DNA of 19,472 nt from a virus. Numbering within the stretch: position 1 is the first letter of the stretch; each line of letters starts with the position of its first letter. Positions 13,438 through 19,472 of this stretch are shown in pieces. A program made the position numbers and the translations under genes. The stretch lies in UHGV virus genome UHGV-0294315. One strand, given 5' to 3'. The notes under the pieces were generated by a model that ran no database searches, was not told where the DNA came from, and worked only from the letters and a program-made list of their open reading frames with translations.

Positions 13438-14210
13438 CCACTATTACCAAAGAGCGACTACTTACAATCAAGCAGTGGCGCGAAACATACGGACCTGGTA
13501 GCAACGTTGTACTGCCAGCAGAAGAAGCGGAAGAACTGGCACGAATTGCACTGGCATCGCTGGAAGCAGATCCAGTTGCTTATATTTTCAAACATCCGGC
13601 CGGGAAATTATTCTGGGCTTTGACGGATGAAAGTAATAAAGATCAATCGGACGTTATTCCTGTTTATGCCACCCCTCCAGTGCCAGTAGTACCTGAAGAA
13701 AAACCAATGCCTAACCCTCTTAAAATGTACGCGGTCGATGCTGTTGCCGCTATTGCAGAGGTGAGAGGCTGGAACGCCTGCCGCGCCGCCATGCTTCAGG
13801 CCGAACCTGTAAGTAATAGTGATGAGTTACCGCTGGACTATCTGCAAGGACACAAAGACGGCCTGGAGTGGGCTGCACAATTGGCAGAAGCCAATCATCC
13901 GCAAACAGGTGACTGGTTGTACGACGACCCAATCGATCTTGCCAGGGCGATTCGCAAAGGTCCTGATATGCCTACTGTTCAGGCTGGCAACTCTCCGGTA
14001 ACTCCGGATGGTTGGATAAGCTGTAGTGATCGAATGCCGGATACCAAAACAGCCGTTCTTGTTGCCGTGGAGTTTGACAGGAAAGGTGACTGGCGAATGA
14101 AATGGGCGACTTACATCCCGGGTCATCCTGACGCTAATGATGGGTGGATAATTCCTGGTGCGTCGTGGAAACCGTCACACTGGATGCGGCTACCAGAGCC
14201 TCCACTTTGA
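13434..14210 (+). CDS. DUF551-type phage protein (258 aa)
   Basis: ATGA-coupled to the HNH gene; C-terminal WISCSDRMPD...W...LPEPP resembles the DUF551 pattern common in enterobacterial prophages (from memory). Confidence 0.55.
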   Translation: MTTITKERLLTIKQWRETYGPGSNVVLPAEEAEELARIALASLEADPVAYIFKHPAGKLFWALTDESNKDQSDVIPVYATPPVPVVPEEKPMPNPLKMYAVDAVAAIAEVRGWNACRAAMLQAEPVSNSDELPLDYLQGHKDGLEWAAQLAEANHPQTGDWLYDDPIDLARAIRKGPDMPTVQAGNSPVTPDGWISCSDRMPDTKTAVLVAVEFDRKGDWRMKWATYIPGHPDANDGWIIPGASWKPSHWMRLPEPPL

Positions 14211-14306
14211 AAGCGAAGCTTATACATATCTTTTACATCAGCAATCTATTGTTAATCTCCAATCAATGTTACGTTGTCATCTCACTCATGCTTTGGAGGT
14301 AGTGAT

Positions 14307-14486
14307 ATGTCTTGTCCAAAATGCGGTTCTGGAAATATTGCAAAAGAAAAAACAATGCGTGGATGGTCTGGAGATTATGTGTGCTGCGATTGCGGATACA
14401 ACGACTCTAAAGACGCATTTGGAGAGCGTGGTAAAAACGAGTTTGTTAAAATTAATAAAGAAAGCGAAGGCAACGAAAAAAGCTAA
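14307..14486 (+). CDS. Small zinc-ribbon protein (59 aa)
   Basis: RBS GGAGGT; MSCPKCGSGNIAKEKTMRGWSGDYVCCDCGYNDSK has two CxxCG pairs. Confidence 0.5.
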   Translation: MSCPKCGSGNIAKEKTMRGWSGDYVCCDCGYNDSKDAFGERGKNEFVKINKESEGNEKS

Positions 14487-14551
14487 TTTATTTATTCATA
14501 TATGAAAACAATGTAACCAATATTCGAATTGAAGAACTGAAAGAACACCAA

Positions 14552-14575
14552 GCCGCCTGATGGCGGTTTTTTATT
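14552..14575 (+). terminator. Intrinsic terminator at the end of the accessory gene block, upstream of xis
   Basis: GCCGCC-TGAT-GGCGG hairpin followed by TTTTTTATT. Confidence 0.7.
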
Positions 14576-14617
14576 GCCTGATTTGCAGGTTCGATTCCCT
14601 ATTCGGAGATAGCACTC

Positions 14618-14818
14618 ATGCAACACGAACTACAACCTGATTCACTGGTTGATTTGAAATTCATCATGGCTGATACTGGCTTCGGTAAGACCTTCATCTA
14701 TGACCGGATTAAGTCCGGCGACCTGCCAAAAGCCAAAGTTATCCACGGGCGAGCAAGATGGTTATATCGTGACCATTGTGAATTCAAAAATAAGCTCTTA
14801 AGCCGCGCCAATGGGTAA
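14618..14818 (+). CDS. xis: Excisionase / AlpA-family small DNA-binding protein
   Basis: 66 aa, LVDLKFIMADTGFGKTFIYDRIKSGDLPKAKVIHGRARWLYRDHCEFKNKL fits the AlpA/Xis winged-HTH pattern; located immediately upstream of the integrase. Confidence 0.65.
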   Translation: MQHELQPDSLVDLKFIMADTGFGKTFIYDRIKSGDLPKAKVIHGRARWLYRDHCEFKNKLLSRANG

Positions 14819-15090
14819 AATAGCGGGTAAAATATTTTTCACATCTAAAAAACACCATTCCAATCAATCCCCTGCCGCGCCAAGTAGATGTCTGCAGGGG
14901 ACACTTTAAAGACCTTTCTCTACATTTCACTTCATTACATAACCACTTAAAAAAACAGTAAGTTATCACCGAATCGGCCTGATTTTCATTTCAGTTAATT
15001 TCATGACATTACAACCTCGTGATGGTATAAGTGATGGTATTCCCCAGTTCGATATGCAGATACCATCAATCTACCAAAATGAGTACAGAT

Positions 15091-16365
15091 ATGGCCATTA
15101 ATGTGCTTTCCCCCAAACAGATAGAAAACGCCAAGCCGAAGACCAATGATTACAAACTTACCGATGGAGGGAGTTTGTATCTACTGGTACGAAAGACTGG
15201 TGGAAAATACTGGCGTATGAATTATCGTTTTGATGGAAAACAAGTGACATTGGCATTAGGGGTCTACCCAGATGTCTCACTTGCAACAGCGCGGAAACGG
15301 CGTGATGAAGCCAGGCAACTACTAGCCGATGGTCGTGATCCTCGCGAAGCAAAGAAACCCAAAAAGGAAGACCCAATTTCCCCCACGTTCGAGAGTGTTG
15401 CCAGAGAGTGGCATAGTAGAACGATAGGGCATCCTGAGTGGAAAGAGATCACCCGTAAAAAAATTCTCCGAGAAATGGAAAACCACCTCTTTCCTGCCAT
15501 CGGTTCAAAGCCTATCGATACGCTCAAAACCCGTGACTTGATGCCGATGCTGGTTGAGATGACTGAGAAAGGAATTGGTGCCACAACGAGCCGGGTAAAA
15601 ACCACTATGACGAGCATCTTCCGTTATGCCGTGCAACGTGGAATTGTCGATTACAACCCTGCCCACGATCTAAAAGGTGCAATTACGACCCCCAAAGTAC
15701 GACATCGCCCCGCACTACCTCTCGAACGTTTACCTGAACTGTTAGCGAAAACGAGAAGTTACACGGGAAGACCATTGACTCGCCTAGCAGTTCTATTTTC
15801 CCTGCACACTTTTGTGCGATCCAGCGAACTACGACATGCCAGATGGGAGGAGATCGACATTGAAAATGGGCTATGGACGATACCAGGACAACGTGAAGAG
15901 ATCGCAGGGGTTAAATTCTCAGAGCGGGGTGCAAAGATGGGGGCTGCTCATTATGTCCCGCTATCTAGTCAGGCTATCGGGGTACTGGAGGATATAAGGA
16001 AAATCAGTGGTGAATATCTGCTGGTTTTCCCCGGTGACAGCAACCCATATAAACCGATGAGCGAAAACACAGTTAATAAAGCACTGCGAACGATGGGTTA
16101 CGACACTCAAAGTGATGTTTGCTTGCATGGGTTCAGGGCGATGGCCTGCTCTGCACTGACCGAATCAGGACTCTGGTCACGCGATGCAGTTGAACGGCAG
16201 ATGAGTCACCAAGAAAGAAACGAAGTGCGGGCAGCATATGTGCATCTTGCGCAGCACATGCAGGAACGCCGCAGAATGATGCAATGGTGGTCTAATTATC
16301 TGGAACTAAATAAGGACGAATTTCATGCTCCTTATGACTTATCAGGTATTAACATTATCAATTAA
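15091..16365 (+). CDS. int: Tyrosine integrase, P4-type (DUF4102 arm-binding N-terminus plus phage integrase catalytic domain)
   Basis: MAINVLSPKQIENAKPKTNDYKLTDGGSLYLLVRKTGGKYWRMNYRFDGKQVTLALGVYPDVSLATARKRRDEARQLLADGRDP is a typical P4-family integrase N-terminus. Start could also be ATG 15079 or the track's GTG 15031. Confidence 0.85.
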   Translation: MAINVLSPKQIENAKPKTNDYKLTDGGSLYLLVRKTGGKYWRMNYRFDGKQVTLALGVYPDVSLATARKRRDEARQLLADGRDPREAKKPKKEDPISPTFESVAREWHSRTIGHPEWKEITRKKILREMENHLFPAIGSKPIDTLKTRDLMPMLVEMTEKGIGATTSRVKTTMTSIFRYAVQRGIVDYNPAHDLKGAITTPKVRHRPALPLERLPELLAKTRSYTGRPLTRLAVLFSLHTFVRSSELRHARWEEIDIENGLWTIPGQREEIAGVKFSERGAKMGAAHYVPLSSQAIGVLEDIRKISGEYLLVFPGDSNPYKPMSENTVNKALRTMGYDTQSDVCLHGFRAMACSALTESGLWSRDAVERQMSHQERNEVRAAYVHLAQHMQERRRMMQWWSNYLELNKDEFHAPYDLSGINIIN

Positions 16366-16395
16366 ATTTTCTTATAATTTAAAACAGAGGTCATA

Positions 16396-17277
16396 ATGCA
16401 GCATTCAAAAGAGAATGAAACTATATTCTTAGGAAATCTATGGATTGACAAAAAAATACCACCATTAGAATATTGTTCATTTGAACGCGCTTCAAGACTA
16501 TTAGAATGCGAGATTGATGATTTATTACACCTATACGAAATAGGCGCTTTTAATATCGCATTCAAGGCGGATGGACTTGCAGTTAGATTTAATGTTAATT
16601 TCCTCTATAAAAATCAGAAAATGGAAATTGACTTAATTCATCCCGTATTAACTAATCAATCACTAGAGATGGAATTTTCAACAATATGGTATGACCTTAA
16701 AGATGACTCCTTTGAACATTTTGAAAATGGGCTTCAAATTATAGGATTTGCCTGTGGTATTTGGTACGCCGATGATATGATAAGTGACATAAAAAATGGA
16801 TTAGCTATAGATCCAGATTATGAATTCAGGCTTAAACCGGTAAAAATACGAGATAATGTTTTGATGGCAACGGCCTCATATGAAGGAAATAAGGTCATTG
16901 ATATTCCATTTGAAGATCTTCTTATCATGCGAAGAGATTTAGAGTTAATATGGAAATCAGTAAAAACTGGAATTCCTATGCCAAGTTTACTTACGAAAAG
17001 AATTTCATCTGAACCTAAAATCCCCAAGCGATTAAATAACACTGCTGAGCATCATGCAAAAAATAGGGGGGGGTTATTAAATGCAGCCATATATATATTA
17101 GCAAAATACCCAAGCGAATGTCGTGGTGAAAGAAAAGAGATAAGTCCTGAAAAGTGGACTAACGCCATAATTAAACATTTAGGAGAGCTACCTCCAATAT
17201 TTATCACTAATGAACAAGAAATCTTAAGAAAATTACGATTAGCGGTTAATCATGCGGGATTAAAACAAAAGGGGTAG
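16396..17277 (+). CDS. Hypothetical 293-aa protein, AT-rich standalone gene between int and alpA
   Basis: Own consensus -10 TATAAT (16373-16378) and RBS AGAGG; long intact ORF in strongly AT-rich DNA. No domain recognised. Confidence 0.6.
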   Translation: MQHSKENETIFLGNLWIDKKIPPLEYCSFERASRLLECEIDDLLHLYEIGAFNIAFKADGLAVRFNVNFLYKNQKMEIDLIHPVLTNQSLEMEFSTIWYDLKDDSFEHFENGLQIIGFACGIWYADDMISDIKNGLAIDPDYEFRLKPVKIRDNVLMATASYEGNKVIDIPFEDLLIMRRDLELIWKSVKTGIPMPSLLTKRISSEPKIPKRLNNTAEHHAKNRGGLLNAAIYILAKYPSECRGERKEISPEKWTNAIIKHLGELPPIFITNEQEILRKLRLAVNHAGLKQKG

Positions 17278-17379
17278 ACTGAAACAATCTACAGGTAGAG
17301 TTGATTACACTACCTTCACAGCATTTTGATATCCCCATAGTATCTGCCGTGTTCATTACATAACACGGCAGGTAATTTC

Positions 17380-17595
17380 ATGACATTAAAAACTTATCCT
17401 ATCACTGGACATGCCCGCCCACGAGCTACTGCTGACTTTTTGCAAATAAGTACGGTTACTCTCTGGCGCTGGGAAAAGAACAATCCTGAATTTCCCAAAT
17501 CTATACGCATTTCAAAACGGGTATCTGTTTACGATGCACAAGAAATTAGGCAGTGGGTTAAAGCTCAATCAGCAGGATTGGAGGAAGTAGTGTAA
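17380..17595 (+). CDS. alpA: AlpA / HTH_17-family transcriptional regulator (P4 Vis-like)
   Basis: 71 aa, ATADFLQISTVTLWRWEKNNPEFPKSIRISKRVSVYDAQEIRQWVK matches the AlpA/excisionase HTH pattern. Confidence 0.65.
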   Translation: MTLKTYPITGHARPRATADFLQISTVTLWRWEKNNPEFPKSIRISKRVSVYDAQEIRQWVKAQSAGLEEVV

Positions 17596-17644
17596 TGACA
17601 ATATTAACAAAGCTGGGGAGAAAAAAGCCTCCCCAACGTATTAA

Positions 17645-17839
17645 TCAATTCTTTGGTTCTAAACCTCGGCTTTGTAACTCTTTGCGTAGAATGCGCTTGA
17701 TCCAAGCCGCTAGCGATTCATCGCCATCCTGCTGTTGTGCTTGTTCCATCAGTTCACGCAGTTCAGGGTCAAGTCGGAACTGGAATGGCGGATTCCCACG
17801 TCTTTCATTTTTGTGTGTTGACACGTCAATTACACCCAT
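17645..17839 (-). CDS. Ribbon-helix-helix (Arc/CopG/MetJ-like) DNA-binding protein
   Basis: 64 aa; NPPFQFRLDPELRELMEQ resembles an RHH beta-strand/helix-A signature. Its promoter region carries repeated TGTAATG half-sites. Confidence 0.5.
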   Translation of the reverse strand: MGVIDVSTHKNERRGNPPFQFRLDPELRELMEQAQQQDGDESLAAWIKRILRKELQSRGLEPKN

Positions 17840-17873
17840 TGTAATGTATTTATGTGTAATGACACATTACACA
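17826..17873. promoter_or_regulatory. Operator-like array of TGTAATG / CATTACA half-sites at the RHH gene start
   Basis: Perfect palindrome GTGTAATG-ACA-CATTACAC (17854-17872) plus further copies TTGTAATG (17839-17846) and AATTACAC (17829-17836). Confidence 0.45.
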
Positions 17874-17955
17874 CAGAAAAACAAAATAGCAACGCCCCGG
17901 AGTGTTTGCAGCACCACCGAGGCGTCTGACCAGCACGTTATATGAGGTAACGAAG

Positions 17956-18132
17956 ATGGCTAAACAGAAGTGTACCTGGTTATTTGCGGCGATCAACCGC
18001 AGTCAACGTAATGCCCGTCCGGTAATGTTAAGGATCACCGCAGATAACGAGCGATCAGCGCGGCGCAGACTTGCCCCGGACTATGTACTGAGCTTTGCCG
18101 GGCGCATTCCCTGCGGAGGTGAACATGCGTAA
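17956..18132 (+). CDS. Icd-like host cell-division inhibitor (P4-family), 58 aa
   Basis: RBS TGAGGT; MAKQKCTWLFAAINRSQRNARPVMLRITADNERSARRRLAPDYVLSFAGRIPCGGEHA resembles Icd-like proteins of P4-type elements (W-FAA...ER-ARR-LA-DY-L-FAGRIP pattern, from memory). Confidence 0.5.
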   Translation: MAKQKCTWLFAAINRSQRNARPVMLRITADNERSARRRLAPDYVLSFAGRIPCGGEHA

Positions 18133-18484
18133 TTATCCGCATCCCGGCGAACGCTGGCAGCATGAACGTGGCTGGACGGTCACGATTATCCGATTAATAG
18201 AAGCCTCGCCCTCTGTGGCGCTGGTTAATCCTGAATTCAGCTGTGAAGTGCTGATACGTCATGACAGCGACAACCAGCTTTCTTCCTGCCCTCTGGCATG
18301 GTTTGAACAGCGATATACGCGCCTGTTTGATGTACCGCTCTTTAAGCCTGCACCAGCTCCTGCAGGCGGTAGTGGTTCCGGCCCGCTGACACTGCATCCG
18401 TCTGTGCTATTTATCCGCTGGCGGGAGCGTAGCATATGGTGTTCTGCTGAGCCTGATGACGGTCACTATTCAAAGTTTCTCTGA
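18125..18484 (+). CDS. Hypothetical protein (119 aa)
   Basis: Start at internal ATG 18125, overlapping the Icd-like stop. Confidence 0.45.
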   Translation: MRNYPHPGERWQHERGWTVTIIRLIEASPSVALVNPEFSCEVLIRHDSDNQLSSCPLAWFEQRYTRLFDVPLFKPAPAPAGGSGSGPLTLHPSVLFIRWRERSIWCSAEPDDGHYSKFL

Positions 18485-18515
18485 CAAAACACCGCTGAAA
18501 ACGGAGTAATCCACA

Positions 18516-18800
18516 ATGAATATTTCAAACGGGCACAACGGTGCTCAGGGCCAGACTTTGCCTGAAAAACACAATACCGGTGCTTTTGCCTATGGGTTGT
18601 CAGAGGACGGTTTCGGAAAGCTGACCCGCGCAAGAAATGCCTGCGACATGCTCCAGCTTCTCTTTTCTGAATACCCGTCTCAGGCCGGAGCACTGGACGC
18701 AGGCTTTGCGCCTGGTGTCGCCGCGCTGATGGAGTACCTGCGGGCAGATTTGACGGATATTGCACACAGCTGCGCACTGATTGAAGGAGGTGCCAGATGA
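18516..18800 (+). CDS. Hypothetical protein (94 aa)
   Basis: RBS GGAG upstream of ATG; intact ORF. Confidence 0.5.
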   Translation: MNISNGHNGAQGQTLPEKHNTGAFAYGLSEDGFGKLTRARNACDMLQLLFSEYPSQAGALDAGFAPGVAALMEYLRADLTDIAHSCALIEGGAR

Positions 18801-19180
18801 ACCAGCCGCAGGTTTCCATTTTCCCGGCAGAAATGACCACCGCGCTTTACCGGTGGGCTATTGCTTCAGCATGGCGGCAGAAAATGCTGAACGAAACTGG
18901 CAATGATCAGTATGGTCCGCACAGCCTGACGGTGGAGCGTATTGAAATGGCCATTGCGCTGCATATCGAGTGCGCACTGATTAACGAGTACGGCGAAGCA
19001 CAGGGCGCCGCTGCCGCGCTGGCACTGCTGACTGACATGCTGGAGCCGTCACTGCTGACCGCGCCGCCGGTACTGACCGCGCGCGGTTGTGAAGTAATGG
19101 CGGAGATGTACCGCACGCTTCCGGCGGCCTTTGATGTCTGCTGCAGTACCGGTGTGACGTTGTATCAGGGGGAAGTATGA
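18797..19180 (+). CDS. Hypothetical protein (127 aa)
   Basis: ATGA-coupled to the genes on both sides. Confidence 0.5.
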   Translation: MNQPQVSIFPAEMTTALYRWAIASAWRQKMLNETGNDQYGPHSLTVERIEMAIALHIECALINEYGEAQGAAAALALLTDMLEPSLLTAPPVLTARGCEVMAEMYRTLPAAFDVCCSTGVTLYQGEV

Positions 19181-19472
19181 CAATACAGACGGTTACGCAG
19201 ATTTCAGCCGCCGCGCGGGGGAAATGGCCCGTTATTCTGCAGATGCTGCGTATTGATGTACCTGAAAACGGCAGGCACGGTCCCTGCCCGAAATGTGGGG
19301 GCAAGGATCGTTTTCGCCTTGATGACCTTGACGGGCGCGGGACGTGGATCTGCAGCCAGTGTGGCAATGGTGACGGTCTGGATCTGGTTAAGCTCGTAAC
19401 CGGTTACAGCGTCAGAAAGGCTGCGCAGGAGGTGGCGCAGATGCTTAATGTGCCGGATGTGCAGGAACTGCC
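19177..19472 (+). CDS. P4 alpha-type primase, N-terminal zinc-binding domain (gene runs off the right edge)
   Basis: Open to the window end; GPCPKCGGKDRFRLDDLDGRGTWICSQCGNGDGLDLV is the primase zinc-ribbon pattern CPxCGG...CxxCG. Confidence 0.6.
   Translation, partial: MTIQTVTQISAAARGKWPVILQMLRIDVPENGRHGPCPKCGGKDRFRLDDLDGRGTWICSQCGNGDGLDLVKLVTGYSVRKAAQEVAQMLNVPDVQEL

Follow-up and report, generated by a model that had tools for sequence, protein, structure and literature searches.

Motifs shared between the int and alpA control regions of a P4-like satellite integrated beside an HK620-type prophage at argW

Several mobile elements place the expression of their integrase under the control of the integrase itself and of a recombination directionality factor (RDF). 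In KplE1, attL overlaps the PintS promoter, on which both IntS and the RDF TorI act as repressors (Panis et al. 2010, PMC2951348). The -10 element overlaps with the arm site P'1, and the int and RDF genes are located at opposite ends of the prophage (PMC2951348). For the satellite P4, PMC7286903 describes repression of Pint by both Int and Vis and the requirement of Vis for excision, citing Piazzolla 2006 and Cali 2004. In PMC7498355 the Apl protein of 186 is reported to bind att and promoters alike. AlpA of phage-inducible chromosomal islands (PICIs) is needed for excision and exerts positive autoregulation (PMC11773190). The AlpA protein of Pseudomonas aeruginosa targets a single short element present in two promoters, the AlpA-binding element (ABE) GGGACGN5GGTA, which is located between -35 and -10 and loads an antiterminator (PMC7969949). 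Here we describe a locus in the UHGV virus genome UHGV-0294315, a stretch of 19,472 nucleotides referred to below as the window, where positions 14576-15090 connect a xis gene to an integrase gene (int) and contain two short sequence words that recur in front of a gene for an AlpA-family regulator (alpA) further downstream. Features lie on the + strand unless stated otherwise, and related loci used for comparison are designated by L numbers. The region proves to be integrase/excisionase control DNA of an ordinary kind; it is no scar of recombination. A regulator common to both genes is the best-supported mechanism for the repeated words, a purely historical origin of their identity being its main rival.

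The 16-mer TAATTTCATGACATTA is found at 14996-15011 and again at 17373-17388, and the 13-mer TTCATTACATAAC at 14931-14943 and 17352-17364. All copies are exact and occupy the four positions reported in the initial annotation, which also correctly gave the ATG of the second 16-mer as the start codon of alpA (17380, the annotated start). The longest word common to the sequences upstream of int and upstream of alpA is 16 nt, a length that none of 300 shuffles of the two regions attains, which places the motifs far beyond chance. Similarly, the number of 16-mers in the window is matched by none of 200 shuffles, and no further + strand copy with up to two mismatches exists anywhere in the window (chance expectation 0.03). 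An exact 13-mer repeat within 19 kb is by itself not rare; as judged from these comparisons, its position beside the 16-mer, with the order kept in both regions, is not due to chance.

Moreover, the two words are variants of a single motif, TTSATKACAY, the pattern of the 13-mer also matching positions 15000-15012 with two mismatches. The window contains five copies of TTSATKACAY, starting at 14931, 15000, 17301, 17352 and 17377, all of them on the + strand and upstream of either int or alpA; 0.5 copies are expected and none of 200 shuffles gives five, figures that are generous since the motif was defined post hoc. A 31-kb locus that carries the whole island has only the same five. The fifth copy, TTGATTACAC (17301-17310), is situated about 45 bp 5' of the predicted alpA transcription start site and has been kept in L008, L022 and L034 amid diverged neighbouring DNA. 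In close relatives the positions of the motifs are constant and the bases around them vary; the recombinant L034 carries C at one and the same motif position of either region, and the window carries T at both. At both of its sites the 16-mer forms a near-palindrome, TAATnTCATGAnATTA, with 7 of 8 pairs symmetric. No copy was found near the attR of the island or elsewhere in its 13 kb, and the motifs are therefore not arm-type sites of the integrase, which correspond to a different word, GATGGTAT (see below). The relation of the two words as one motif, the fifth copy, the location of the second 13-mer at the top of a hairpin and the assignment of a nearby inverted repeat to DNA outside the satellite go beyond what had been annotated.

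To which element these sequences belong follows from the structure of the locus. As alignments show, the region represents the seam between two independently integrated elements that both use argW. The border is a 13-bp att core, CTGCAGGGGACAC (14892-14904), which is shared by the attR side of a prophage and the attL side of a P4-like satellite. In a three-way alignment of the window, the HK620 attP and an argW-satellite junction, the HK620 arm lies to the left of CTGCAGGGGACAC and the satellite attL to its right. Megablast searches give the same limits: HK620, HK633, Sf6, Kapi1 and their relatives match the window only up to about 14904, and many complete E. coli genomes match from 14892 on, with the tRNA-Arg gene argW directly abutting. 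The position of CTGCAGGGGACAC is that of the annotated attP core of HK620. A tRNA scan detected no tRNA gene in the window, which contains only the 13-bp core. Of the 5,426 complete E. coli genomes, 10 have torI and the satellite joined in exactly this way. In prophage-free genomes the integrase gene is found immediately downstream of argW, transcribed away from the tRNA. The comparison with such genomes thus places the boundary at the core and settles the ownership of the integrase, left open in the initial annotation, in favour of the satellite. Consequently, the 'xis-int junction' named there does not stand as a single module, as xis encodes the TorI-type RDF of an HK620/Sf6-like prophage and int the P4-type integrase of the satellite. 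That the satellite owns the integrase and wholly contains both motif pairs can be regarded as secure on the strength of these comparisons, and the same grade applies to the structural conclusions on the element boundary, the arm sites, the TTCA array and the hairpin.

The P' arm of the satellite attL, which includes the int regulatory region, extends over 14905-15090 and retains its architecture at fixed distances in 17-18 distinct relatives. The predicted promoter Pint (15003-15031), as read from the sequence, consists of a -35 ATGACA (15003-08), a 17-nt spacer and a -10 TATAAG (15026-31). Its geometry is kept in the relatives, the predicted -10 being located inside the first of two tandem copies of GATGGTAT (15021-28 and 15033-40, 12-bp period); likewise, P4 has TTGAAA-18-CATAAT across its arm repeats. 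A third, inverted copy occupies 15060-67 on the - strand and reads ATACCATC on the + strand. A tandem pair of GATGGTAT is found again beside the far att site of the island, attR (L001, 27295 and 27307), and the layout as a whole is that of the annotated arm repeats of P4. In L014 (Buttiauxella) all three copies read GCGGGTAT/ATACCCGC; the Int protein of this locus shows 78% overall identity, with differences in the first 28 residues. L005, with a window-like Int N-terminus, has retained GATGGTAT. Occurrence in both arms of the island, co-variation with the Int N-terminus and the P4-like layout mark GATGGTAT as the arm-type sites of Int. Upstream of int in L058 (E. coli 15A23CPO013) there are three tandem GATGGTATAAGT arm repeats in place of two, generated via a 12-bp duplication, a case of natural variation in the number of Int arm sites.

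Between the core and Pint, a series of TTCA repeats spans 14926-15003 (14926, 14931, 14985, 14990 and 15000) and provides candidate sites for the RDF, here AlpA. In 18 sequences the interval from the core to the -35 contains 106 TTCA on the + strand and 5 on the - strand, for an expectation of 15.5. Positions -3 and -13 are fixed in 18 of 18 and positions -66, -76 and -86 are present in most; with this 10-bp phasing, all five recurring positions fall on one face of the helix. At the equivalent place, the int-proximal arm of HK620 carries GTTCG, ATCCG and GTCCG at 10-bp spacing. The pentamers serve as TorI sites in KplE1, where they fall into two blocks; TorI represses intS through the one beside the -35 (PMC2951348). 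By this analogy the TTCA array is read as the RDF array of the satellite, with Pint under the control of Int and RDF, and it is likely that the repeats are excisionase sites. As in KplE1, int lies directly downstream of a tRNA attL and reads away from it, and in 18 of 18 relatives the sequence geometry fits an arm site over the predicted -10 and candidate RDF repeats abutting the -35. The int-side 16-mer covers the TTCA at -3 and the predicted -35. Its core, TTCATGACAWTRC, is placed 7 nt upstream of the arm sites, contains a good -35 and is invariant in all 17-18 distinct relatives, with variable flanks. The int-side 13-mer spans two positions of the core-proximal TTCA block; its extended sequence is mostly unconserved, relatives carrying TTCACTTCACAAC, GTCATTACACAAA or TTCATCACTTAAT instead.

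On the alpA side the same words are embedded in a leader structure. Positions 17341-17374 form a hairpin (-19.7 kcal/mol, z=-5.9) in which a stem of 13 bp (17341-53 / 17362-74) closes a loop of 8 nt, and its 3' arm includes the alpA Shine-Dalgarno sequence AGGT (17370-73). In 18 distinct relatives drawn from genomes, IMG/VR and metagenomes, 95.5% of the cells of the stem alignment are paired. Two stem pairs show double compensatory changes (CG->UA and GC->AU), and the G-U intermediates fit an RNA transcribed from the + strand. The hairpin is thus conserved family-wide and lies outside Rfam: a scan of 14000-19472 with Rfam 15 gave no hit above threshold, the only one for the hairpin being a sub-threshold match to RybB (21.5 vs 40 bits, E=0.53). 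The 13-mer makes up the apical stem and the loop, and the 16-mer comprises the spacer between Shine-Dalgarno and ATG, the start codon and codons 2-3. In L011 and L038, by visual inspection, the leader can also pair in a register shifted by 4 nt (CTACCTGTC/GACAGGTAG) that still buries the Shine-Dalgarno sequence, which fits selection on occlusion of the ribosome-binding site. A role as intrinsic terminator was rejected, since a U-tract is lacking: after the stem the window reads AUUUCAUG, and relatives read GAAACCUAUG.

A promoter-like site, TTCACA-17-TAGTAT (17315-17343), has its end exactly at the hairpin's 5' arm. It is a consensus match only, and the number of promoter-like sites in the scanned region does not exceed the shuffled expectation. 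Were it genuine, transcripts made from it would start without the 5' arm and could be translated, and read-through from int would be silenced. In MITQ-type lineages (L009, L010, L014, L037 and L041) two copies of a palindrome, AGTAAGCTTACT, are present about 60-110 bp upstream of alpA, where they occupy the place of the TTGATTACAC copy of the window; this suggests that a different regulator operates in these lineages.

How, then, did the two control regions come to share their motifs? Tentatively, and with a probability that we place a little short of even, we attribute the sharing to a common regulator, with AlpA as the prime candidate, which would act at both promoters via the motif. Int would repress its own promoter through the arm sites, and the AlpA-type RDF of the satellite would bind the TTCA array, bend attL for excision and modulate Pint; IntS and TorI have been shown to be arranged in this way in KplE1, and the like is reported of Int and Vis in P4. 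One and the same protein, with AlpA as the most likely one, would in addition bind the leader/promoter region of its own gene, which would couple excision to the expression of int and to the synthesis of AlpA. In this lineage only, the alpA-side sequences have become identical to the int-side sites. This explanation accounts for two exact words and a fifth copy that keep their order and strand and occur only in the two control regions, and it draws support from the systems cited at the outset, in which an RDF or AlpA protein acts at att or int and at a second promoter. The palindromic form of the 16-mer at both of its sites, the constancy of the motif positions amid variable neighbours and the paired C of L034 speak in its favour as well. 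A more specific proposal, which we consider unlikely, is that the AlpA-type RDF has acquired an autoregulatory circuit in this one lineage of argW-targeting P4-like satellites. TTSATKACAY would then be the AlpA site in attL/Pint as well as in the alpA leader, where it would double as the loop of the hairpin sequestering the ribosome-binding site, and one short sequence would gate induction of the satellite at both the DNA and the RNA level.

A number of observations weigh against a common regulator. Of 16 relatives tested locus by locus, significant similarity between the int and alpA upstream regions is confined to the MTLK-alpA clade, where the shared word measures 16 nt in the window, 14 nt in AH21 (AH21/EC974) and 12/14 in L008; 13 other distinct relatives are at chance level, despite a conserved AlpA helix-turn-helix. 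The alpA-side copies already serve as hairpin loop, start codon and codons. The spacing between the sites is 69 bp on the int side vs 25 bp on the alpA side, and the TTCA copies of the alpA side are not helically phased. As for known systems, no significant shared word was detected between the vis and int upstream regions of P4, nor between the alpA and intA upstream regions of CP4-57. Genuine RDF sites therefore need not look like the shared motif, and the idea that AlpA or Vis binds both regions gains no support by generalisation. Furthermore, a 16-bp near-palindrome would suit a dimeric repressor better than a typical RDF, and AlpA binding at both regions, like the start sites of Pint and alpA, remains a prediction. 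The shared regulatory site proposed in the initial annotation stays plausible and is preferred here, on the understanding that it holds in one lineage and is unproven.

The strongest competing explanation dispenses with a common factor. The words would have local roles only, as -35 of Pint plus RDF array on one side and as hairpin loop plus translation start on the other, and their identity would reflect related A/T-rich ancestors, drift or templated mutation between quasi-repeats. We regard this as possible, with a probability clearly on the low side. The restriction of the sharing to one clade speaks for it, and P4 and CP4-57 show nothing comparable. Moreover, a 9-nt deletion and a G>C change suffice to derive the alpA-side 13-mer from the ancestral long loop, TTGATTACA[CAAGCGACA]TAAC, which likewise speaks against the preferred regulator, and L036 carries the intermediate form of the loop, TTGATTACATAAC. 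The int-side 13-mer, for its part, is homologous to TTCACTTCACAAC or GTCATTACACAAA in relatives. Nevertheless, two exact words of 16 and 13 nt in conserved order and strand, plus a fifth copy, are hard to obtain from different ancestors without selection, and the 16-mer is 7/8 palindromic at both places. Ordinary RecA-mediated gene conversion needs more than 13-16 nt, and words of this size are thus too short to have been copied from one place to the other in that way.

Alternatively, the motifs could be operators for another binder, such as an Arc-like repressor, integration host factor (IHF) or a protein of the helper phage, which would silence int and alpA together; this is rather improbable. 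A near-palindromic 16-mer suits a dimeric repressor, and an Arc-like gene occurs in exactly the lineages that have the alpA-side motif and is missing from the others, a distribution that also counts against AlpA as the common regulator. However, the Arc-like gene is tightly linked to the 5' region of alpA, and the co-occurrence therefore amounts to a single evolutionary event. In L004 and L007 the DNA upstream of alpA is identical, and their Arc-like proteins are 56% and 94% identical to that of the window; in addition, no copy of the motif is present in the region upstream of the Arc-like gene itself. Concerning IHF, TTTCATGACATTA, as read from the sequence, fits 7 of the 9 specified positions of the consensus WATCAANNNNTTR, and PMC7286903 reports a high-affinity IHF site in the int regulatory region of P4, but the other motif copies fit this consensus poorly. 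Comparison by eye with the IHF, Fur, FNR and CRP consensus sequences singled out only the 16-mer as IHF-like (7/9), the other copies not.

Two further proposals have hardly any likelihood left. The initial annotation had considered that the motifs might be the scar of a recombination event between a lambdoid xis-int module and a P4-like element, for which nothing speaks except that a lambdoid xis adjoins a P4-type int; this is refuted by prophage homology that ends at the att core, with no phage homology past 14904 and hence no motifs in HK620-like phage genomes, by motif pairs that lie inside the satellite and are identical in prophage-free genomes where argW abuts it, and by the expected position of HK620's own int at the prophage's other end. 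The short open reading frame (ORF) noted earlier indeed runs from the ATG of the int-side 16-mer at 15003 over 31 codons to 15098 and overlaps the int ATG at 15091, but that it is functional, coupled to int and mimics the alpA start is very unlikely, given that its frame is unconserved (the ATG is in frame with int in L011-L013, L004 has a 1-nt indel and the sequences diverge freely) and that no Shine-Dalgarno sequence precedes it (CAGT, not AGGT). A trans-acting antisense RNA from the - strand of attL was dropped as a candidate, as it predicts a family-wide identity that is not observed.

On the left of the seam, the prophage contributes the TorI-type xis gene (14618-14818), which lies outside the satellite. 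Its product gives a full-length match to PDB 1Z4H, the Tor inhibition protein (E=6.6e-43), and the region is 98% identical to HK620 DNA up to the core and annotated as torI in E. coli genomes. As in the HK620/Sf6/KplE1 module, the TorI RDF adjoins an attR with the core CTGCAGGGGACACCAT, the sequence quoted for the KplE1 module (PMC2951348). In HK620, attP is annotated between xis and int, and the integrated prophage should therefore have its own int at the opposite end, as does KplE1. The inverted repeat TCCCCTGC/GCAGGGGA (14868-14901; arms 14868-75 and 14894-901, 18-nt spacer) is present as previously described. Its left arm is DNA of the HK620 attP arm, its right arm coincides with the att core and with the 3' acceptor strand of argW, and the repeat is also found in the HK620 attP; it thus belongs to the HK620-type attP/att core and not to the satellite.

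Further to the left, 14576-14598 corresponds to the cII-dependent 'integration' promoter region (TTGC-N6-TTGC) of the HK620 annotation. Within it, TTGCAGGTTCGATTCC (14583-14598; HK620/L002 1684-1699) is identical over 16 nt to the T-arm of argW and is present in the argW of every locus. In the tRNA the matching segment directly adjoins the att core on its 5' side; HK620-type phages have it about 294 bp to the left of the core, 5' of torI and within the cII-dependent integration promoter. The tRNA-derived homology hence appears to be split by the xis gene. The prophage is situated between argW and the satellite. In a comparison of window positions 14880-14904 with 13993-14012 and 27367-27382 of L001, the satellite attL therefore retains only CTGCAGGG(GACAC) of the 16-bp repeat TTCGATTCCTGCAGGG that it has in common with its attR. 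Independent excision of the satellite may be impaired, or prophage and satellite may leave together as a composite.

To the right of the seam, the satellite genes start with the P4-type integrase (15091-16365; 424 aa), which is 52% identical to P4 Int over 409 aa and contains the Pfam domains Arm-DNA-bind_3 (PF13356), Phage_int_M (PF22022) and Phage_integrase (PF00589). Between int and alpA, a 293-aa conserved hypothetical protein is encoded at 16396-17277. It has no Pfam or PHROG match and does not resemble P4 cII; homologues are found at the same position in all relatives (24-92% identity). The alpA gene (17380-17595) encodes a winged-helix regulator of 71 aa of the AlpA family, the candidate RDF/regulator of the satellite. 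It matches Pfam PF05930 (31.6 bits vs a cut-off of 21) and PHROG 66, which bears the label 'excisionase and transcriptional regulator', and weakly matches PDB 8C3T, an AlpA family protein. Convergent with alpA on the - strand lies the gene for the small Arc-like (YlcI/YnfO) repressor (17645-17839; PHROG 228, E=9e-6). A strong hairpin at 17612-17637, between these two convergent genes, scored as terminator-like on the - strand.

The order of the satellite genes from attL is int, 293-aa ORF, alpA, icd-like gene, DUF5375 and primase. Since the window stops at the start of the primase gene, the complete island was read in the prophage-free locus L001, where it measures 13.4 kb, including about 2 kb of IS100, and is bounded by the direct repeat TTCGATTCCTGCAGGG at 13993 and 27367. 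It is a tRNA-bounded element with direct repeats in the manner of P4-like elements of ~10-12 kb, and its annotation comprises psu (truncated by IS100), an ogr/delta-like gene, a TOPRIM+DUF927 primase, DUF5375, the icd-like gene and the AlpA-like gene. The P4 order (int...psu-delta-sid / vis-cI-epsilon-alpha next to att) is not found; instead, L001 has the variant organisation int-hyp-alpA-...-primase-(sid-like)-psu-delta-att. Between 14000 and 27400 this order resembles the int-alpA layout of PICIs. The island is a P4-like satellite with a non-P4 gene order.

The system as a whole is of a known kind, a tRNA-linked and self-regulated integrase with RDF sites in attL, and leaves existing paradigms unchallenged; the leader hairpin of alpA is modestly novel. 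The window shows a tandem array of prophage and satellite at argW. For the satellite family, it affords a testable map of attL, with the core, the phased TTCA array, the predicted -35 and -10 of Pint and the GATGGTAT sites that co-vary with Int, and it adds a conserved hairpin upstream of alpA in which the ribosome-binding site is occluded. The control of induction of such satellites is poorly known outside P4. If AlpA does bind both regions, a P4-like satellite would possess a compact RDF circuit that couples excision, the level of integrase and the synthesis of the RDF itself.

With regard to translation, the closest counterpart of the alpA leader is the fold-back inhibition reportedly described for IS10 by Davis, Simons and Kleckner in 1985, in which a hairpin is said to pair the ribosome-binding site with upstream sequence. 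Read-through transcripts of IS10 are reportedly left untranslated, and a promoter firing inside the hairpin is said to yield translatable mRNA. The likeness, a pure analogy, consists in a -10-like hexamer that abuts the 5' arm of the hairpin in the alpA leader, and it is limited by AH21-type relatives, in which the best -10 candidate is further upstream. The AlpA of P. aeruginosa offers the parallel of an AlpA-family protein with one short element common to two promoters, which in the satellite is a candidate; the satellite motif is unrelated to the ABE and lacks a downstream intrinsic terminator. Gram-negative PICIs (EcCIMP1, EcCICFT073) display the same int-alpA arrangement. However, the satellite has P4 hallmark genes (psu, delta-like, primase alpha-type), and the element is therefore not a PICI.

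The comparison with P4 is closer. The integrases are 52% identical, and in both elements the arm repeats comprise two tandem copies and an inverted one on the int side and two tandem copies on the far side, a -10, predicted in the satellite, lies across the arm repeats, and both encode a small AlpA/Vis-type protein with a winged helix. P4 Vis reportedly also binds its own promoter PLL. The differences concern the AlpA of the satellite, which can barely be aligned with Vis, and the gene order; moreover, P4 integrates at leuX, and a word shared by its int and vis upstream regions was not detected. The organisation of attL is most similar to that of KplE1, HK620 and Sf6, with the same att core, int directly downstream of argW and reading away from it, and a predicted Pint within attL. 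As in KplE1, an arm-type site covers the predicted -10, and RDF-type repeats form two blocks, one of them by the -35. Unlike KplE1, the satellite has a P4-type integrase with the arm word GATGGTAT, Pint and binding to the repeats are only predicted, and the repeat word is TTCA in place of GTTCG/GATCG/GTCCG. Finally, the RDF gene of the satellite lies 2.3 kb downstream of int and not, as in KplE1, at the other end of the element.

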